Shown in pieces: positions 1-7,424 of a stretch of DNA of 7,424 bases. The notes below the pieces were generated by a model. That model was not told the DNA's origin. It worked only from the letters and a program-made list of their open reading frames with translations, and ran no database searches. The stretch covers positions 1 through 7,424 of IMG/VR virus record IMGVR_UViG_2645728091_000002. One strand, 5' to 3'. Position 1 is the stretch's first letter, and each line of letters opens with the position of its first letter. Origin of the DNA: a virus (taxonomy: Duplodnaviria > Heunggongvirae > Uroviricota > Caudoviricetes). The translations under genes and the position numbers were made by a program.

Positions 1-95
1 GTCGTCATGTGGGATGGCTGGTTCAGACTTCAGGATATGGTTGAGGGTTACCTGGTGATGAAGTCTCTTGATCAGGAGATCTGATCAAGAGACAG
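1..95 (+). mobile_element. Right end of an IS50-like (IS4 family) insertion sequence: transposase C-terminal fragment (1..84, continues upstream of the window) plus 19-bp terminal inverted repeat (77..95)
   Basis: Frame 1 of + strand reads VVMWDGWFRLQDMVEGYLVMKSLDQEI-stop (TGA 82-84), which resembles the Tn5 transposase C-terminus as I recall it (…WEGWEALQSKLDGFLAAKDLMAQGIKI). The reverse complement of 77-95 is CTGTCTCTTGATCAGATCT, matching the 19-bp IS50 inside-end sequence. The protein tail differs from IS50, so this is a relative, not IS50 itself. Lambda-O-like sequence begins abruptly at 96. Confidence 0.7.
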
Positions 96-458
96 CTCGT
101 TTTGAGGGATGCACCATTCTGAGATGTTTTTATTTGGTCCAAACATGCCGCCTTGCTGCTTGATAATATTCATTCTGACGAGCTCTAACTTGGCTTCATT
201 GCATCGTTTGACAGGTAACTTTGTAATCTCACTAAGTTGAGAATCGGTGATTCTGTCCATTGGTTTATTCCACCCATAGGTTTTACGCAGAATGGCAAGC
301 AGCACTTTAAACTGTCGCTTGGTCAGATCTGCGCCTGAATAAGCCTCAAGCAGCATATTTGATAGTCTGGCGTAACCATCATCGAGATCTGCCACATTAC
401 GCTCCTGTTCGGCAAAGTTACCTCTGCCGAAGTTGAGTATTTTTGCTGTATTTGTCAT
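72..458 (-). pseudogene. O: Lambda-type replication initiator O, truncated after codon 121 by the IS insertion; fused to 7 IS-derived codons (LSLDQIS) before a stop
   Basis: Translation MTNTAKILNFGRGNF…NISEWCIPQNE matches the lambda O N-terminal domain as I recall it. Likely start is ATG at 456-458 with GGAG 6 nt upstream; the 143-aa ORF in the track is an upstream over-extension. O-derived sequence ends at 96, inside ATCCCTCAAAACGAG (minus strand, 96-110), the left half of a lambda ori iteron (TCCCTC-AAAAC-GAGGGA). Full-length O is about 299 aa. Confidence 0.85.
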
Positions 459-492
459 AATTACTCCTGTGGATTGATCCAGTCTTTCTACA

Positions 493-771
493 TCAGGCCT
501 CAAAACTGTTGCAGCAGTCTTGAGGCTTTTCTTTTGTCAGCACCATGGCTACTTTCTTTGCCAGCTCCGCTAATTCCTCGTCTTCAACACCCCACTCCAG
601 CACAGCCAGAAGCATGGCCATCTTTGGGATAAAGCTGTCTTTCCATCGCGAAATTTGCGATTCATTAATCCCTAATGCATCAGCAACCTTTCGCTGACCA
701 CGTACAGCAATTCGATTTAGGATGTTGCTTGTAATTGCATTCGCTTTCTTGCGAGTACTTGTAAGTTGCAT
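493..771 (-). CDS. c1: cII-family transcriptional activator, P22 C1-type (92 aa)
   Basis: Sequence MQLTSTRKKANAIT…QISRWK…IPKM…LLAVLEWGV… has the cII/C1 family hallmarks (SQISRWK helix-turn-helix region, LLAVLEWGV). It sits between cro and O as in lambdoid phages. I chose the internal ATG (769-771) over the track's ATG at 858 because the longer form would run through nutR boxB and the 92-aa form has the family length. Confidence 0.8.
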   Translation of the reverse strand: MQLTSTRKKANAITSNILNRIAVRGQRKVADALGINESQISRWKDSFIPKMAMLLAVLEWGVEDEELAELAKKVAMVLTKEKPQDCCNSFEA

Positions 772-828
772 ATGTAAGTATTTCCTTAACAAATAAGAAG
801 TTATACGCACCAACTGATGCGCGTTGTA

Positions 829-872
829 TTCCCGCATTTCGGCGGGAATGAGGACCATGACTGTTAAAGAGC
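829..872 (-). promoter_or_regulatory. nutR: boxA (862-872, GCTCTTTAACA on minus strand) and boxB hairpin (829-848, TTCCCGCCGAAATGCGGGAA on minus strand)
   Basis: boxA matches the boxA consensus (CGCTCTT-A type). boxB is a stem CCCGC/GCGGG around a purine-rich loop. The same boxA (11/11) and boxB core recur at nutL (1960-2000) with near-identical spacing. Confidence 0.7.
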
Positions 873-879
873 AATTTGC

Positions 880-1065
880 TTATGCCGCTTTGCGATAAGC
901 ACTTTCTTGATACTTCAGGGCGCCAGCTGTAACGACTTCCAGTCGATAGGCGTCTTTCTCTGGGATGACTTCCTTCCACTGAGAGACTGCTGCATCGCTA
1001 ATGCCTAACGCTTTAGCTACCGCACGCTGGGTTCCGAAGTGGTCGATAACATCTTTCTTGTACAT
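880..1065 (-). CDS. cro: Cro repressor, P22-type (61 aa)
   Basis: MYKKDVIDHFGTQRAVAKALGISDAAVSQWKEVIPEKDAYRLEVVTAGALKYQESAYRKAA matches P22 Cro as I recall it. GGAG lies 7 nt upstream of the ATG on the minus strand. It is divergent from the repressor gene across an operator region. Confidence 0.9.
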   Translation of the reverse strand: MYKKDVIDHFGTQRAVAKALGISDAAVSQWKEVIPEKDAYRLEVVTAGALKYQESAYRKAA

Positions 1066-1145
1066 AGACTCGCTCCGAAATTAAAGAACACTTAAATCAT
1101 CTGTCAAAGGAATCTTAAGTCAAGTTTATTTAAGATATCTTAACT
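1066..1145. promoter_or_regulatory. OR operator region with divergent pR (minus strand, towards cro) and pRM (plus strand, towards c2)
   Basis: Contains ATTTAAG/CTTAAAT-type half-sites: aattaaagaacacttaaat (1079-1097) and the 14-bp palindrome ttaagatatcttaa (1130-1143). Minus-strand -35 TTGACA is the complement of 1102-1107, with an A/T-rich -10 candidate about 17 bp downstream. The c2 ATG at 1146 has essentially no leader or Shine-Dalgarno, as in the lambda cI/pRM arrangement. Confidence 0.7.
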
Positions 1146-1796
1146 ATGAATACACAACTGATGGGTGAGCGTATTCGCGCTCGCAGAAAAGAACTCAAGA
1201 TTAGGCAGGCTGCCCTTGGCAAGATGGTTGGCGTGTCTAATGTTGCTATTTCCCAATGGGAGCGTTCTGAAACTGAGCCCAATGGCGAAAACCTATTGGC
1301 CTTAGCCAAGGCTTTGCAGTGTTCCCCTGATTACTTGTTGAAAGGAGAAGATAGTCTTTCAAACATTGCCTATCACAGCAGGCATGATCCAAGAGGTTCG
1401 TATCCTCTAATTAGTTGGGTAAGCGCAGGATGTTGGATGGAAGCTGTAGAGCCATATCATAAGCGTGCAATAGATAACTGGTACGATACAACCGTAGATT
1501 GTTCAGAAGATTCGTTTTGGCTGGACGTAAAAGGTGATTCGATGACGGCTCCAGCCGGTCTTAGCATCCCTGAAGGGATGATAATACTCGTCGATCCTGA
1601 AGTAGAACCTCGTAATGGGAAGCTGGTAGTGGCAAAGCTCGAAGGAGAAAACGAGGCAACTTTCAAGAAGTTAGTTATTGATGCTGGCAGGAGGTTTCTA
1701 AAACCACTTAACCCACAATATCCGATGATTGAGATCAACGGGAACTGCAAAATCATCGGTGTAGTTGTCGATGCAAAAATAGCAAACCTTCCATAA
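1146..1796 (+). CDS. c2: Prophage repressor, P22 C2-type (216 aa), LexA-like S24 autopeptidase C-terminal domain
   Basis: MNTQLMGERIRARRKELKIRQAALGKMVGVSNVAISQWERSE… is an HTH_3-type N-terminal domain and matches P22 C2 as I recall it. It has an Ala94-Gly95 cleavage site (VSAGCW), a GDSM serine motif (S132) and FKKL lysine (K174/K175), consistent with RecA-stimulated self-cleavage. Confidence 0.92.
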   Translation: MNTQLMGERIRARRKELKIRQAALGKMVGVSNVAISQWERSETEPNGENLLALAKALQCSPDYLLKGEDSLSNIAYHSRHDPRGSYPLISWVSAGCWMEAVEPYHKRAIDNWYDTTVDCSEDSFWLDVKGDSMTAPAGLSIPEGMIILVDPEVEPRNGKLVVAKLEGENEATFKKLVIDAGRRFLKPLNPQYPMIEINGNCKIIGVVVDAKIANLP

Positions 1797-1820
1797 GGGG
1801 CATTCGCCCCTTTTTTCTTT
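1797..1820 (+). terminator. Rho-independent terminator immediately after c2
   Basis: GGGGC(1797-1801)-ATTC-GCCCC(1806-1810) stem-loop followed by TTTTTTCTTT. Confidence 0.75.
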
Positions 1821-1854
1821 CCTTTAAAAATCAAAGCAAAACTTAAGCCCTGCA

Positions 1855-1925
1855 ATAAAATTTAAGTTTTCTTCAAAAACACTCTTGACCACAAATTAAA
1901 GAAATCTTAAATTTAAGTCATCAGC
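1855..1925 (+). promoter_or_regulatory. OL operators and pL promoter (leftward early promoter, + strand in this window)
   Basis: -35 TTGACC (1885-1890), 17-bp spacer, -10 TAAATT (1908-1913). Operator-like repeat aattaaagaaatcttaaat (1894-1912) matches the OR copy at 17/19 positions. Further ATTTAAG half-sites at 1860-1866 and 1911-1917. Confidence 0.7.
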
Positions 1926-1959
1926 AGGACGCTGGTAGCCAAACGGAACAGATTGGCAG

Positions 1960-2000
1960 GCTCTTTAACATTGATGGGATTGTCCCGCCGAAATGCGGGA
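1960..2000 (+). promoter_or_regulatory. nutL: boxA GCTCTTTAACA (1960-1970) and boxB hairpin TCCCGCCGAAATGCGGGA (1983-2000)
   Basis: Same boxA and boxB as nutR on the opposite strand. Located between pL and the N-like gene, as expected for an N-utilisation site. Confidence 0.7.
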
Positions 2001-2114
2001 ACCAAAGAGTAGTTGGCTTTGGGGTGATGTGAAGTGCAGCCGCGCGACAGCATCAGGGAATTAACCTCCCACCCCCCGTCACGTCACCGCTAAAGTCAAT
2101 CATCGGAGGTCAAC

Positions 2115-2414
2115 ATGACAGTAGTCATTACATATCTGGCTGACGATAACGCCAGAAATCGCCGCAGAGCACGCAGACAGGCTCAACGTGAACAGGCAAT
2201 GCAAGAGCAGCGACTGGCGCGAAAGATTGCGCTAAAGCTCTCTGGTTGCGTCAGAGCAGATAAAGCAGCATCACTCGGAAGCCTTCGCTGCCAGAAGGCA
2301 GAAGAAGTCGAGCGTAAACAGAACCGTATTTACTACAGCAAGCCACGCAGTGAAATGGGTGTGACTTGTGTTGGTCGCCAGAAAATGAAATTAGGCAGCA
2401 AACCACTTATTTGA
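2115..2414 (+). CDS. N: N-family transcription antiterminator (99 aa) with an atypical arginine-rich motif
   Basis: C-terminal two-thirds (…LARKIALKLSGCVRADKAASLGSLRC…ERKQNRIYYSKPRSEMGVTCVGRQKMKLGSKPLI) parallels the lambda N C-terminus (ERKNQRTWYSKPGERGITCSGRQKIKGKSIPLI) and the phage 21 N body as I recall them. The N-terminal ARM is DNARNRRRARRQAQREQ. GGAGG lies 5 nt upstream of the ATG. It is the first gene downstream of pL/nutL. Confidence 0.85.
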   Translation: MTVVITYLADDNARNRRRARRQAQREQAMQEQRLARKIALKLSGCVRADKAASLGSLRCQKAEEVERKQNRIYYSKPRSEMGVTCVGRQKMKLGSKPLI

Positions 2415-2422
2415 GGTGATAT

Positions 2423-2872
2423 ATGGAAGAACAGGCAAATAAGATTCTCATAGAACTATTGCAAAAAGCCAGTAATGGAATAGACGCGGCTGTCTCATTT
2501 AGCCAGGCACAGATTCCTGATGTTGTTCATCAGTTGCTGCTATGGAATATGGTTGATAGCCTGATTAAAACATTAATAGCCATTTTAACAATCCCGCTGG
2601 TTTTCTGGTTTATGAAGAAACAGTACCAAAAAGTTGAAATTGGTAAGTTCGATGATGAAGGATGGTCATGGGATAAGGGGAAGACTAAATACAAACCGAC
2701 TATGATTTGGGAAAGTAACGGTGAGATTAGTTTTCTAATCTTACCATTAGCTGCAGTTTTTGTTCTGTGGGTAAGTTTTATTATTGCTGTAGTAACCAAT
2801 ATGACATGGTTAGAAATTTTGCTGGCTCCAAAGCTTTACCTTATCGAATATGCAGCATCATTGGTTAAGTAA
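2423..2872 (+). CDS. Small membrane protein (149 aa, two predicted TM helices), function unknown; occupies the position where lambdoid phages carry sieB-type superinfection-exclusion genes
   Basis: GAGGTGA Shine-Dalgarno overlaps the N stop codon, with the ATG 8 nt after N, so it is translationally coupled. Hydrophobic segments LIKTLIAILTIPLVFWFM and ISFLILPLAAVFVLWVSFIIAVV. Visibly more A+T-rich than the flanking N and Red genes. I do not recognise the sequence as a named protein. Confidence 0.75.
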   Translation: MEEQANKILIELLQKASNGIDAAVSFSQAQIPDVVHQLLLWNMVDSLIKTLIAILTIPLVFWFMKKQYQKVEIGKFDDEGWSWDKGKTKYKPTMIWESNGEISFLILPLAAVFVLWVSFIIAVVTNMTWLEILLAPKLYLIEYAASLVK

Positions 2873-2876
2873 TTTC

Positions 2877-2902
2877 AGGCCGCATAGTCGGCCTTTATTT
2901 TT
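2877..2902 (+). terminator. Rho-independent terminator after the membrane-protein gene (tL1-like position)
   Basis: AGGCCG(2877-2882)-CATAGT-CGGCCT(2889-2894) stem followed by TTATTTTT. Confidence 0.7.
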
Positions 2903-2931
2903 GGCACTAACAACAGAATAAACACTGCACT

Positions 2932-2959
2932 GTGTATTCATTCCAACGAGTGAATACAC
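2932..2959 (+). other. Stable stem-loop (11-bp stem with one G·U, 6-nt loop) in a non-coding segment; not followed by a U-tract
   Basis: GTGTATTCATT (2932-2942) pairs with AGTGAATACAC (2949-2959); loop CCAACG. No convincing ORF or promoter around it. Confidence 0.5.
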
Positions 2960-3021
2960 GGAGCAATGTCGCTCGTAACTAAACAGGAGCCGACTTGTTC
3001 TGATTATTGGAAATCTTCTTT

Positions 3022-3048
3022 GCCCTCCAGTGTGAGGGCGATTTTTTA
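3022..3048 (+). terminator. Rho-independent terminator just upstream of the ea10-like gene
   Basis: GCCCTC(3022-3027)-CAGTGT-GAGGGC(3034-3039) stem followed by GATTTTTTA. Confidence 0.7.
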
Positions 3049-3067
3049 TCTATGAGGATATGAATAG

Positions 3068-3436
3068 ATGTCAAACATCAAAAAATACATCATTGATTAC
3101 GACTGGAAAGCATCAATAGAAATTGAAATCGACCATGACGTAATGACAGAGGAAAAACTTCACCAGATTAATAATTTCTGGTCAGACTCTGAATACCGAC
3201 TCAATAAACACGGCTCTGTATTAAATGCTGTATTAATCATGCTGGCGCAACATGCTCTGCTTATAGCAATTTCAAGCGACTTAAATGCATATGGTGTTGT
3301 GTGTGAGTTCGACTGGAATGATGGAAATGGTCAGGAAGGATGGCCTCCAATGGATGGTAGCGAAGGAATAAGAATTACCGATATCGATACATCAGGAATA
3401 TTTGATTCAGATGATATGACTATCAAGGCCGCCTGA
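3068..3436 (+). CDS. ea10: Acidic 122-aa early-left-operon protein; probable counterpart of lambda Ea10
   Basis: GAGGA lies 9 nt upstream of the ATG. The gene sits immediately upstream of cIII and has the 122-aa length I associate with lambda Ea10. The assignment rests on position and size; I do not reliably recall the Ea10 sequence. The C-terminal third is strongly acidic (DWNDGNGQEGWPPMDGSEG…DSDDM). Confidence 0.6.
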   Translation: MSNIKKYIIDYDWKASIEIEIDHDVMTEEKLHQINNFWSDSEYRLNKHGSVLNAVLIMLAQHALLIAISSDLNAYGVVCEFDWNDGNGQEGWPPMDGSEGIRITDIDTSGIFDSDDMTIKAA

Positions 3437-3460
3437 GTGCGGTTTTACCGCATACCAATA

Positions 3461-3482
3461 ACGCTTCACTCGAGGCGTTTTT
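3461..3482 (+). terminator. Putative terminator or RNA structure upstream of the cIII ribosome-binding site
   Basis: ACGCTTC(3461-3467)-ACTC-GAGGCGT(3472-3478), a 7-bp stem with one G·U, followed by TTTTTCGTT. Could also be part of the cIII leader structures known to modulate cIII translation in lambda. Confidence 0.45.
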
Positions 3483-3508
3483 CGTTATGTATAAATAAGG
3501 AGCACACC

Positions 3509-3673
3509 ATGCAATATGCCATTGCAGGGTGGCCTGTTGCTGGCTGCCCTTCCGAATCTTTACTTGAACGAATCACCCGTAAATTACGTGACGGATGGAA
3601 ACGCCTTATCGACATACTTAATCAGCCAGGAGTCCCAAAGAATGGATCAAACACTTATGGCTATCCAGACTAA
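3509..3673 (+). CDS. cIII: CIII (54 aa), inhibitor of FtsH-mediated CII degradation
   Basis: [54 protein letters not shown] matches lambda CIII as I recall it. AAGGAG lies 6 nt upstream of the ATG at 3509. The 78-aa ORF in the track is an in-frame upstream over-extension. Confidence 0.92.
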   Translation: MQYAIAGWPVAGCPSESLLERITRKLRDGWKRLIDILNQPGVPKNGSNTYGYPD

Positions 3674-3785
3674 ATTCACTATCGCCACTTTTATTGGCGA
3701 TGAAAAGATGTTTCGTGAAGCCGTCGACGCTTATAAAAAATGGATATTAATGCTGAAACTGAGATCAAGCAAAAGCATTCACTAA
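3642..3785 (+). CDS. kil: Kil (47 aa), host cell-division inhibitor
   Basis: [47 protein letters not shown] matches lambda Kil as I recall it. AGGAG lies 9 nt upstream. It overlaps the 3' end of cIII in another frame, as in lambda. The 89-aa track ORF is an over-extension. Confidence 0.85.
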
Positions 3786-4156
3786 CCCCCTTTCCTGTTT
3801 TCCTAATCAGCCTGGCATTTCGCGGGCGATATTTTCACAGCTATTTCAGGAGTTCAGCCATGAACGCTTATTACATTCAGGATCGTCTTGAGGCTCAGAG
3901 CTGGGCGCGTCACTACCAGCAGATCGCCCGTGAAGAGAAAGAGGCAGAACTGGCAGACGACATGGAAAAAGGCCTGCCCCAGCACCTGTTTGAATCGCTA
4001 TGCATCGATCATTTGCAACGCCACGGGGCCAGCAAAAAAGCCATTACCCGTGCGTTTGATGACGATGTTGAGTTTCAGGAGCGCATGGCAGAACACATCC
4101 GGTACATGGTTGAAACCATTGCTCACCACCAGGTTGATATTGATTCAGAGGTATAA
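3740..4156 (+). CDS. gam: Gam (138 aa), RecBCD inhibitor
   Basis: [80 protein letters not shown]… is near-identical to lambda Gam as I recall it. The internal Met (MNAYYIQ…) corresponds to the short Gam form. Confidence 0.93.
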
Positions 4157-4161
4157 AACGG

Positions 4162-4947
4162 ATGAGTACAGCACTCGCAACGCTGGCTGGGAAGCTGGCT
4201 GAACGAGTCGGCATGGATTCTGTCGACCCACAGGAACTGATCACCACTCTTCGCCAGACGGCATTTAAAGGTGATGCCAGCGATGCGCAGTTCATCGCAT
4301 TGCTGATCGTCGCCAACCAGTACGGTCTTAATCCGTGGACGAAAGAAATTTACGCCTTCCCTGATAAGCAGAACGGCATCGTTCCGGTGGTGGGCGTTGA
4401 TGGCTGGTCCCGCATCATCAACGAAAACCAGCAGTTTGACGGCATGGACTTTGAACAGGACAACGAATCCTGCACATGCCGGATTTACCGCAAAGACCGC
4501 AATCATCCGATCTGCGTTACCGAGTGGATGGATGAATGCCGCCGCGAACCATTCAAAACCCGCGAAGGCAGAGAAATCACCGGACCGTGGCAGTCGCATC
4601 CCAAACGGATGTTACGGCATAAAGCCATGATTCAGTGTGCCCGTCTGGCCTTCGGATTTGCTGGTATCTATGACAAGGATGAAGCCGAGCGCATTGTCGA
4701 AAATACTGCATACACTGCAGAACGTCAGCCGGAACGCGACATCACTCCGGTTAACGATGAAACCATGCAGGAGATTAACACTCTGCTGATCGCCCTGGAT
4801 AAAACATGGGATGACGACTTATTGCCGCTCTGTTCCCTGATATTTCGCCGCGACATTCGCGCATCGTCAGAACTGACACAGGCCGAAGCAGTGAAAGCTC
4901 TTGGATTCCTGAAACAGAAAGCCACTGAGCAGAAGGTGGCAGCATGA
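4162..4947 (+). CDS. bet: Bet (261 aa), Red-beta single-strand annealing protein
   Basis: [100 protein letters not shown]… matches lambda Bet in sequence and length. Confidence 0.95.
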
Positions 4948-5624
4948 CACCGGACATTATCCTGCAGCGTACCGGGATCGACGTGAGAGCTGTCGAACAG
5001 GGGGATGATGCATGGCACAAATTACGGCTCGGCGTCATCACCGCTTCAGAAGTTCACAACGTGATAGCAAAGCCCCGATCAGGAAAGAAGTGGCCTGACA
5101 TGAAAATGTCCTACTTCCACACCCTGCTAGCTGAGGTTTGCACCGGTGTGGCTCCGGAAGTTAACGCTAAAGCGCTGGCCTGGGGAAAACAGTACGAGAA
5201 CGACGCCAGAACCCTGTTTGAGTTCACTTCCGGCGTAAATGTTATTGAATCCCCGATCATCTATCGCGACGAAAGTATGCGCACCGCCTGCTCTCCCGAT
5301 GGTTTATGCAGTGACGGCAATGGCCTTGAGCTGAAATGCCCGTTTACCTCCCGGGATTTCATGAAATTCCGGCTCGGTGGTTTCGAGGCCATAAAGTCGG
5401 CTTACATGGCCCAGGTGCAGTACAGCATGTGGGTGACGCGAAAAGATGCCTGGTACTTTGCCAACTATGACCCGCGTATGAAGCGTGAAGGCCTGCATTA
5501 TGTCGTGATTGAGCGGAATGAAAAGTATATAGCGAGTTTTGACGAGATGGTGCCGGAGTTCATCGAAAAAATGGACGAGGCACTGGCTGAAATTGGTTTT
5601 GTATTTGGGGAGCAATGGCGATGA
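4944..5624 (+). CDS. exo: Exo (226 aa), Red-alpha 5'-3' exonuclease
   Basis: [94 protein letters not shown]… matches lambda Exo. The start overlaps the bet stop (ATGA), as in lambda. Confidence 0.95.
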
Positions 5625-5803
5625 AACATCCTCACGATAATATCCGCGTAGGCACGATCACTTTCGTCTACTCCGTTACGAAGCGAGGCTGGGTATTTCC
5701 CGGCCTTTCTGTTATCCGAAATCCACTGAAAGCACAGCGGCTGGCTGAGGAGATAAATAATAAACGGGGAGCTGTATGCACAAAGCATCTCCCGTTGAGT
5801 TAA
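5621..5803 (+). CDS. Small protein corresponding in position and size to lambda orf60a (60 aa)
   Basis: ATG overlaps the exo stop (ATGA at 5621-5624). 60 aa from [19 protein letters not shown]… An alternative start two codons upstream (5615) gives the 62-aa track ORF. Position immediately distal to exo as in lambda. Confidence 0.7.
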
Positions 5804-5967
5804 GAACGAGTATCGAGATGGCACATAGCCTCGCTCAAATTGGAGTCAGGTTTGTGCCAATACCAGTAGAAACAGACGAAGAATTTCATACGTTAGCCGC
5901 ATCCCTTTCACAAAAGCTGGAAATGATGGTGGCGAAAGCAGAAGCAGATGAGAGAGACCAGGTATGA
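5776..5967 (+). CDS. Small protein corresponding in position and size to lambda orf63 (63 aa)
   Basis: 63-aa [66 protein letters not shown], overlapping the end of the preceding gene as in the lambda orf60a/orf63 arrangement. Confidence 0.7.
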   Translation: MHKASPVELRTSIEMAHSLAQIGVRFVPIPVETDEEFHTLAASLSQKLEMMVAKAEADERDQV

Positions 5968-6043
5968 CAACCACTGAATGCATTTTTCTGGCAGCGGGCT
6001 TCATATTCTGTGTGCTTATGCTTGCCGACATGGGACTTGTTCA

Positions 6044-6259
6044 ATGACACCTCAGCAAGAAAACGCCCTTCGCAGTATTGCCCGTCAGGCTAATTCTGAA
6101 ATCAAAAAAGCCAGACAGCAGTTTCCGGATAAAAACGTCGATGACATTTGCCGTAGCGTACTGAAGAAGCACCGCGAAACGGTAACGCTGATGGGATTCA
6201 CACCGACTCATTTAAGCCTGGCGATCGGCATGTTAAACGGCGTCTTTAAGGAACGGTGA
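6044..6259 (+). CDS. Small basic protein (71 aa from this start), orf61-like position; start codon uncertain (alternative ATG at 5978 gives 93 aa)
   Basis: MTPQQENALRSIARQANSEIKKARQQFPDKNVDDICRSVLKKHRETVTLMGFTPTHLSLAIGMLNGVFKER. The ATG at 6044 overlaps the stop of a 27-aa upstream ORF (ATGA). Weak Shine-Dalgarno for either start. Confidence 0.6.
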   Translation: MTPQQENALRSIARQANSEIKKARQQFPDKNVDDICRSVLKKHRETVTLMGFTPTHLSLAIGMLNGVFKER

Positions 6260-6281
6260 GCATGAAAAACAAAATCATCAT

Positions 6282-6302
6282 GGAGCTACAGGCTCCTTTT
6301 TT
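6282..6302 (+). terminator. Rho-independent terminator in the distal pL operon
   Basis: GGAGC(6282-6286)-TACAG-GCTCC(6292-6296) followed by TTTTTTATTATT. Confidence 0.65.
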
Positions 6303-6357
6303 ATTATTCGCATTCACCCTCAAGCGTATTAACCAACAATTCAGGGATTAATGAAAG

Positions 6358-6579
6358 ATGGCAGACATCATTGATTCAGCATCAGAAATTGAAGAATTAC
6401 AGCGCAACACAGCAATAAAAATGCGCCGCCTGAACCACCAGGCTATATCTGCCACTCATTGTTGTGAGTGTGGCGATCCGATAGATGAACGAAGACGCTT
6501 GGCCGTTCAGGGTTGTCGGACTTGTGCAAGTTGCCAGGAGGATCTGGAACTTATCAGTAAACAGAGAGGTTCGAAGTGA
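6358..6579 (+). CDS. DksA/TraR-family C4 zinc-finger protein (73 aa), a probable RNA-polymerase secondary-channel binding regulator
   Basis: C-x2-C … C-x2-C motif (CCECGDPIDERRRLAVQGCRTCASC) and overall similarity to F-plasmid TraR (…CEACGNPIPEARRK…C..C) as I recall it. The 73-aa size is typical of phage TraR-like proteins. Confidence 0.8.
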   Translation: MADIIDSASEIEELQRNTAIKMRRLNHQAISATHCCECGDPIDERRRLAVQGCRTCASCQEDLELISKQRGSK

Positions 6580-6731
6580 GCGAAATTAACTAGAAGCCAA
6601 AGATAAAATCATCGCTGAGCAGGAGAAAATCGCTAACGGAGAAAAGACAGTAAGTCAGTATATGAAAACCGCATGATATCATCAGATAAAAATCGATCGT
6701 AAAGCGAAATATTAATACCAGAATAAACGAG

Positions 6732-6755
6732 TCGAGGTAAATTATATTACCTCGA
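6732..6755. terminator. Inverted repeat (9-bp arms, 6-bp spacer) between convergent genes; probable terminator for the minus-strand membrane-protein gene, possibly bidirectional
   Basis: TCGAGGTAA(6732-6740)-ATTATA-TTACCTCGA(6747-6755). On the minus strand the hairpin is followed by a T-rich run (complement of 6716-6731). It lies about 35 bp beyond the minus-gene stop at 6790-6792. Confidence 0.5.
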
Positions 6756-6789
6756 TAAATTAACTAAAACTTGCCCGCTATATACTATC

Positions 6790-7320
6790 TCATTCAGTAT
6801 CATCACGCGCGGTCTGTGCATATGTTACTACCGCACCTAATGTATTAATTTTCTTTTCAACATAGATAATATTATCGTACTCATAATTGCCATACGGATA
6901 GCAAATGCGAATATTCTCATGTAGATCGGGGTCATCCACCTCAGCTCCAGAACAACTTTTTGAACTACCGGAAGTATACCGATACGGTGCAACATAAGAC
7001 GATGTCTCTCCAGGCAAAAAATAAGTTAGTGTTGTAAGGGGTATAATCAGAAAAAATCCAGCAAATATGCACATCCCTGCATAAACCTTAAGGTATGCTG
7101 ACAGACTCTTCCAGCCGCTTTGTTTTACTATCCCCTTCTTAACCCAAAACAGAGATAACAGAAAAGCTATTCCCATGCTAAACAGAATGTAATAGTGGGA
7201 TATACTCTGATTAAGAAACGTGACCCTGTAAATATCTGCCCGCCACCAGAAGAAAAGGAAAATAAAGATCAGGCCTGAAACTGTCATGCAAATCAAATAA
7301 GGATACGAATCTTTTTTCAT
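6790..7320 (-). CDS. A+T-rich accessory (moron-like) membrane protein, 176 aa, three predicted TM helices plus a Cys-containing C-terminal soluble domain; function unknown
   Basis: Long uninterrupted ORF in strongly A+T-rich DNA, where chance ORFs are disfavoured. Lys-rich N-terminus MKKDSYPY followed by hydrophobic segments LICMTVSGLIFIFLFFWW, YYILFSMGIAFLLSLFWV and VYAGMCIFAGFFLIIPLTTLTYFL. Convergent with the pL operon. Its start codon is 9 bp from the IS10-type end. Confidence 0.7.
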   Translation of the reverse strand: MKKDSYPYLICMTVSGLIFIFLFFWWRADIYRVTFLNQSISHYYILFSMGIAFLLSLFWVKKGIVKQSGWKSLSAYLKVYAGMCIFAGFFLIIPLTTLTYFLPGETSSYVAPYRYTSGSSKSCSGAEVDDPDLHENIRICYPYGNYEYDNIIYVEKKINTLGAVVTYAQTARDDTE

Positions 7321-7328
7321 GTTTAGCG

Positions 7329-7424
7329 CTGATGAATCCCCTAATGATTTTTATCAAAATCATTAAGTTAAGGTAGATACACATCTTGTCATATGATCAA
7401 ATGGTTTCGCCAAAAATCAATAAT
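7329..7424 (+). mobile_element. Outside end of an IS10-type element (Tn10 family); element continues beyond the window, transposase gene expected on the + strand just past 7424
   Basis: CTGATGAATCCCCTAATGATTTTTATCAAAATCATTAAGTTAAGGTAGATACACATCTTGTCATATGATCAAATGGTTTCGCCAAAAATCAATAAT matches the IS10 outside-end sequence as I recall it, including the terminal CTGATGAATCCCC, the near-palindrome around AATGATTTT…AAAATCATT and the TTAAGTTAAGG IHF-site region. Flanking 9 bp TGTTTAGCG (7320-7328) resembles the IS10 target consensus NGCTNAGCN. Confidence 0.85.

Follow-up and report, generated by a model that had tools for sequence, protein, structure and literature searches.

The initiator O of phage lambda has an N-terminal iteron-binding domain and a C-terminal P-binding part, which are needed on one chain; the lambda origin has four iterons. 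IS insertions in the lambda cII-O-P region are classical, and cryptic prophages inactivated by IS elements are known. Among the elements that could be compared, Tn5 duplicates a fixed 9 bp at a target of weak consensus, IS231 targets GGG-N5-CCC, and IS1397 and ISKpn1 target REP loops. Stx-type phages (e.g., 933W and P27) have six-iteron origins inside O (PMC7466680). The two outer iterons of such origins are weakly bound by O in footprints, and plasmids in which iteron 1 or 1′ (the accessory iterons) is mutated failed to transform (PMC7466680).

How does the present locus compare? In the stretch of DNA analysed (the window; 7,424 nucleotides), an ISEc13 insertion in the outermost iteron very probably splits O of a lambdoid prophage, with the other parts of the origin kept beyond the IS. 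Like the classical lambda insertions, it interrupts an early gene, which would leave a defective prophage, and N antitermination can relieve polarity; unlike them, it involves another IS and another site, and lies within an iteron. As in the Stx-type origin of 933W and P27, O is 312 aa and contains six palindromic 19-bp iterons and an AT-rich tract mid-gene, but here the outermost iteron is split by an IS, and the prophage of contig L017 (see below) is without stx genes.

The window, itself a short-read contig, begins and finishes in an IS end; between the two lies a lambdoid prophage early region, reversed relative to the lambda map, with the following features:

72 to 458, minus strand: truncated O (O′), an ORF of 128 aa, consisting of O residues 1-121, IS-encoded LSLDQIS and a stop
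96 to 109, no strand assigned: remnant of the outermost ori iteron, CTCGTTTTGAGGGA, 14 of the 17 bp of TCCCTC-GTTTT-GAGGGA, by comparison with the intact O/ori of L002
433 to 461, plus strand: candidate oop promoter by its place at the start of O, antisense to cII; TTGAGT-17-CATAAT with an upstream TG (extended -10)
493 to 771, minus strand: cII; Pfam Phage_CII on the called gene of contig L003, mapped to the window
880 to 1065, minus strand: cro; PF14549 P22_Cro, E=9e-28
1096 to 1123, minus strand: pR-like promoter, which would drive cro-cII-O′; TTGACT-16-GATGAT, a consensus match only
1146 to 1796, plus strand: intact CI-type repressor (HTH and S24 peptidase); PF01381 and PF00717
4162 to 4947, plus strand: bet
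4944 to 5624, plus strand: exo

An N-like gene (a weak Pfam match), cIII/kil/gam and a TraR-like gene are also found on the plus strand beyond the repressor; an oop RNA is annotated in phage 21 at the place that corresponds to the promoter-like site.

Bases 1-95 are the right end of ISEc13, and homology to the O gene runs from base 96. When 5,426 complete E. coli genomes and 50,697 phage records were searched, the O matches all began at query base 96, which places the break at 95|96; the earlier note, which had put an IS50-like element inside the first (O-proximal) ori iteron of a lambdoid O, was correct to the base. It had also described the product as an O N-terminal domain of 121 aa with a 7-aa IS tail, and this is read directly from the frame: the ATG is at 458, the stop at 74-72, and 121 codons (458 to 96) derive from O. 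O′ retains a complete Phage_rep_O DNA-binding domain (Pfam PF04492, residues 22-115, E=9e-37) and by this N-terminal domain fits a lambdoid initiator; the C-terminal, P-interacting part is not on the same polypeptide. The interrupted iteron is the outermost one, O-proximal and most distant from the AT-rich region, and its 14 bp are all that the window has of the array. The placement of the junction in an ori iteron thus stands, while the idea that only an iteron half is left gives way to the 14 of 17 bp kept. The unbroken arrangement is seen in L002 (strain 2013C-4991), in which an intact O contains an origin with six iterons at 2886-3017, the outermost at 2997-3017.

Which element broke the gene? 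Three features of the IS side bear on this question:

1 to 95, plus strand: right end of ISEc13, comprising the last 27 transposase codons and stop (1-84) and the terminal inverted repeat, by identity to annotated copies
77 to 95, minus strand: right inverted repeat (IRR), 19 bp; CTGTCTCTTGATCAGATCT read from the tip, the window strand AGATCTGATCAAGAGACAG being its reverse complement
63 to 93, no strand assigned: perfect palindrome in the IS end, its 12-bp arms (TCTCTTGATCAG / CTGATCAAGAGA) repeating the terminal sequence inverted

In frame 1, bases 1-84 read VVMWDGWFRLQDMVEGYLVMKSLDQEI followed by a stop codon, which lies (at 82-84) within the inverted repeat. Bases 1-96 are 100% identical to copies annotated by NCBI as 'IS4-like element ISEc13 family transposase'. 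The IS copy of this insertion has 95 bases within the window; for a longer comparison, a contig of the same lineage, L003, was used, which is 100% identical to window 1-7329 and carries the IS on to 713 bases, with 96.6-99.2% identity to full ISEc13 copies. ISfinder treats as isoforms those elements that are at least about 95% identical to reference copies; window 1-96 and the 713 bases of L003 both show at least 95% nucleotide identity. Full copies measure 1549-1564 bp and have the left inverted repeat (IRL) CTGTCTCTTATACACAAAT and the IRR CTGTCTCTTGATCAGATCT. Both terminal repeats are present at this insertion, the IRR at window 77-95 and the IRL on L017 from 11575, in a region identical over 87 bases to a copy in EPEC E2348/69. 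The same ISEc13 end was matched in 2471 of 5426 complete E. coli genomes (~45%), at up to 32 places per genome; E2348/69 alone has 30 copies of it. ISEc13 is a catalogued, common E. coli IS, and nothing was found that sets the inserted element apart from it; the suggestion that the element might be an uncatalogued relative of IS50 falls, as NCBI already names ISEc13 and the match over 1-96 is 100%. The papers examined that name ISEc13 mention it only as the name of an IS, and the main text of a review of the IS4 family does not include it (PMC2266710).

Kinship to Tn5 is nonetheless plain. When compared with PDB chains of Tn5 transposase, the ISEc13 enzyme gives E=6e-84 and about 42% identity over 436 aligned residues. 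It shares with the Tn5 transposase the DDE type and the DNA-binding and dimerisation domains: Pfam Tnp_DNA_bind and DDE_Tnp_1 score above their cut-offs and Dimer_Tnp_Tn5 just under (24.1 bits vs a 26.7-bit cut-off). The right end is identical at 19/19 positions to the IS50 inside end, which we take to be the string CTGTCTCTTGATCAGATCT at window 77-95, just as had been claimed for the 19-bp repeat. At the left end, 17 of 19 positions agree with the outside end, and as many with the mosaic end, with sequences of both taken from PMC3347997, and the IRR string also lies within a Tn5 screening primer (PMC12310338). A single-ORF DDE transposase, homology to Tn5 and 5′-CT ends assign ISEc13 to the IS4 family and to the IS50 subgroup as defined in the review (PMC2266710). 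Does this make the element IS50? Its transposase ends ...KSLDQEI, whereas that of IS50R ends ...AQGIKI, and the two are about 42% identical; by identity and by tail, the element lies outside IS50 proper, and IS50/Tn5 itself is ruled out. The element is thus IS50-like yet not IS50, as first described, and its leftward extension on L003 continues as 713 bases of ISEc13 rather than as an intact IS50.

Two circumstances could suggest an artefact, either a short-read chimera or a lambda::Tn5 construct from the laboratory: about 95 IS bases lie at each window end, which is typical of assembly-graph overlaps, and the 19-bp end does not differ from the inside end of IS50. But the junction has been assembled independently in isolates and metagenomes, a clean 9-bp duplication is present, and both the tail of the transposase and its surroundings over 713 bases in L003 identify ISEc13, not IS50; the chance of an artefact is negligible. 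A chimera is ruled out by the independent assemblies and the clean duplication; a construct is ruled out by the presence of the junction in isolates and gut metagenomes and by the identity of the IS. The junction is natural. The exact 128-aa O′ occurs on 19 contigs. Their sources are an NCBI isolate assembly (GCA_001265845.1), Logan assemblies of sequencing runs and several ENA metagenomes, and all 19 stop inside the IS; short-read assemblies break at multi-copy repeats. A 31-mer across the window-side junction had no match in GTDB species representatives, IMG/VR or JGI metagenomes, and none of the complete E. coli genomes carries the junction. The O::ISEc13 junction can serve as a lineage marker visible in isolates and gut metagenomes.

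If the window ends inside the IS, where is the rest of O? The earlier note held that the prophage had lost its origin and proposed looking elsewhere for the displaced remainder of O, ori and P. An IMG/VR scan for an iteron half joined to the ISEc13 left end led to L017, which ends ...ggggaacctccCTCGTTTTG|CTGTCTCTTATACACAAATCCCC at the ISEc13 left end. Two features tie it to the window:

96 to 104 of the window, no strand assigned: right copy of a 9-bp target-site duplication, CTCGTTTTG; the left copy is at L017 11566-11574, directly before the ISEc13 left end
L017 10990 to 11589, minus strand: ′O, an ORF of 199 aa (VYKRQQNEGG...), with a GTG in the IS left end that is in frame, given the 9-bp duplication

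ISEc13 is thus flanked by a direct target duplication, the two copies of which lie in two different assemblies. When L017 to 11574 is joined to the window from 105, an uninterrupted O of 312 aa results, identical to the O of L002 at 307 of 312 residues; the same 9-bp repeat on both sides and the restored O are the signature of a simple insertion. Besides five iterons, the AT-rich tract and the C-terminal part of O, L017 contains P, ren, NinG, a phosphatase, Q, lysozyme, Rz, Rha and Nu1. The missing pieces were therefore found, on a contig from a different assembly, and the loss of the origin is contradicted by a contig with the same 9-bp duplication that holds five iterons, the AT-rich region and P.

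The junctions were read from different assemblies, the window and L003 on one side and L017 on the other (IMG genome 2645728091), and the contigs all end inside the IS. Might the IS instead mark the end-point of a deletion, with the rest of O, ori and P gone from the window's genome and a remnant without ori left behind? That all 19 junction contigs stop in the IS, so that the left side is never seen in the same assembly, would fit this, as would the multi-copy state of ISEc13 (up to 32 places per genome), since it makes recombination between IS copies easier. Such a deletion is nevertheless improbable: L017 has exactly the complementary junction, its 9-bp duplication is the one in the window, and joining yields an intact O; moreover, ′O and O′, as exact sequences, have their three kinds of source in common. 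A version of ′O of 186 aa, with an internal ATG start, is present as an exact sequence in public protein sets, on 8 contigs (NCBI, Logan and ENA), vs 10 for O′ in these three sources. That the genome of the window later lost DNA through the IS is likewise improbable; an IS-mediated inversion in it would also be compatible with contigs that all end there. The origin was thus probably displaced by 1.55 kb rather than deleted, provided that both junctions share one genome; the string CCCTCGTTTTGCTGTCTCTTATACAC offers a handle here, as its co-presence with the O′ junction in the same samples would tie the two junctions together. The closest cluster representative homologous to ′O is a contig-end fragment of an Stx phage, not an IS junction, and the P-side junction is absent from JGI metagenomes. 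More generally, a short-read contig that breaks off in an IS is no safe basis for calling an origin lost.

A simple insertion is very probable and would have the following course. A 1.55-kb ISEc13 (IS4 family, IS50 subgroup) would have been cut and pasted into the outermost of six iterons inside O, duplicating 9 bp (CTCGTTTTG) and dividing O into O′ and ′O. O′, the iteron-binding domain with seven IS-coded residues, would stay behind pR; ′O, the linker and the P-binding C-terminal part, would lie 1.55 kb further on, accompanied by five intact iterons and the AT-rich region as well as by P, ren, the nin genes, Q and the genes for lysis. Lacking a full-length initiator, the induced prophage would be unable to begin its theta replication, as O in two pieces could not recruit P-DnaB. 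The label of a replication-dead prophage seems well chosen to this extent, as established lambda biology implies that a prophage without complete O should not replicate alone. Precise excision between the 9-bp repeats, which is rare, could restore O. The origin would probably be usable if a matching O were supplied in trans; yet, even with O supplied, a five-iteron origin may be impaired, given that mutated accessory iterons blocked plasmid transformation (PMC7466680).

Transcription across the insertion would be affected as well. Transcripts from pR would enter the IS antisense to the transposase, and P and later genes would depend on N antitermination. On the ISEc13 strand antisense to the transposase (L001 1714-2131, minus), five terminator-like hairpins are found vs 1.3 expected in shuffles; they would stop transcription that enters the IS from that side. 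At the junction, the palindrome at 63-93, which spans the transposase stop codon and three GATC (Dam) sites, is predicted to form, together with the T-run of the iteron, a 14-pair hairpin that scores as an intrinsic terminator on the plus strand. A consensus scan of ISEc13 found no outward sigma-70-like promoter. The event is natural and an ordinary inactivation of a prophage gene by an IS, not new in kind, which matters little beyond bookkeeping; it documents how the lambdoid prophage of one E. coli lineage was disabled by a common IS.

Could the truncated protein have a function of its own? It had been proposed that the O fragment might interfere with superinfecting phages, and in its strongest form this reading makes O(1-121)+7 a functional protein that binds iterons and hampers phages of the same ori, the insertion having been selected as an exclusion device. 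The Phage_rep_O DNA-binding domain is whole, and the allele persists across several hosts and samples, as such a device would; however, clonal descent explains this persistence equally well. O′ is also without a promoter of its own: it sits behind pR/cro/cII beside an intact S24-type repressor gene and should therefore be silent in a lysogen, and a heteroimmune phage would not switch it on. From this arrangement, interference by O(1-121) with a superinfecting phage appears unlikely, and selection of the insertion as an exclusion device very unlikely.

Why did the IS land in an iteron? Each of the six other full ISEc13 copies examined (6/6) lies in a palindrome whose left arm is C-rich and whose right arm is G-rich, such as AGCCCTCTC-GGTT-GAGAGGGCT or TGCCCCCC-TTAT-AGGGGGCA, and their duplications, of 8-10 bp, fall at or near the palindrome centre. 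Taken together, L001, L012, L013, L015, L016, L035 and the window/L017 pair have duplications of 8, 8, 8, 9, 9, 10 and 10 bp. ISEc13 thus differs from Tn5 in the variable length of its duplications (8-10 bp) and in a strong bias to C-run/G-run palindromes where Tn5 has a weak consensus. The bias extends to a wider set of elements that share the 23-nt right end, in E. coli, Salmonella, Serratia, Rahnella, Budvicia, Phytobacter and others: a G-run occurs 5-15 bases from the IS in 40 of 45 distinct right flanks vs a background of 2.9% (p=2e-56), and position 13 of the right flank is G in 42 of 45. When a weight matrix built from 49 other flanks was scored over the reconstructed 18.8-kb prophage segment (37,560 positions), the iterons took 4 of the top 15 places; the actual insertion site ranked 178th of 37,560 in the observed orientation and 2nd in the opposite one.

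The iteron, TCCCTC-N5-GAGGGA, fits the C-run/G-run target, and the choice of site was plausibly due to this preference: the iteron would likely have been taken for its resemblance to the palindromes preferred by ISEc13-type elements. No second ISEc13 insertion beside this O allele was present among the query-matching complete E. coli genomes, and no other ISEc13 insertion in an iteron was present in IMG/VR, where other palindromic sites did turn up; iterons are therefore not a frequent hot spot. In a broader and more tentative reading, which we rate at somewhat under an even chance, a strong and possibly undescribed specificity for about CCCTC-N3-6-GAGGG is common to ISEc13 and close relatives of it in Enterobacterales, and lambdoid iterons mimic this target; O-binding iterons would then be natural landing sites at which prophage replication is knocked out. 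On the same reading, and with the same reserve, many C-run/G-run targets may belong to repeated intergenic hairpins. A palindrome preference of ISEc13-type elements was not found described in the papers examined that name ISEc13, nor in the passages searched of PMC2266710. Mildly new, it would help to predict the landing places of an abundant IS. Insertion at the centre of short GC-rich palindromes is shared with IS231 (GGG-N5-CCC) and IS1397/ISKpn1 (REP loops); these belong to transposase lineages (the IS231 subgroup and the IS3 family) that differ from that of ISEc13, the target arms of which are CCCTC...GAGGG.

Two further observations concern the target palindromes. Among the right flanks L018-L067, many insertions in Serratia, Rahnella, Phytobacter and Escherichia share a palindrome family, ...CCCTCTCCC-NNN-GGGAGAGGGTTAGGGTGAG..., which suggests that ISEc13-type elements ride on an intergenic repeat. 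A phage flank, ...gcccctccgcacag / ctgtgcggaggggc..., adjoins the right end of the IS in L073 and its left end in L075 and L076: either this palindrome is used in both orientations or an inversion occurred.

The far end of the window holds a second insertion. The window closes with 96 bases (7329-7424) of the outside end of an IS10-like element, CTGATGAATCCCCTAATG..., which is missing from the otherwise identical contig L003; the transposase beside an end of this kind carries the annotation 'IS4-like element ISVsa5 family'. IS10 has a hot-spot consensus, NGCTNAGCN, and the putative 9-bp target at 7320-7328, TGTTTAGCG, fits it at 5 of 6 fixed positions. The insertion abuts one ORF:

6790 to 7320, minus strand: predicted membrane ORF of 176 aa between the TraR-like gene and xis/int, no Pfam match

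The call for this ORF in L003 has 200 aa. Either the IS10-like insertion has cost the ORF its first 24 codons, or it lies immediately upstream of the ATG. IS10 has an outward promoter, pOUT, and that of the IS10-like element would point toward the membrane ORF.
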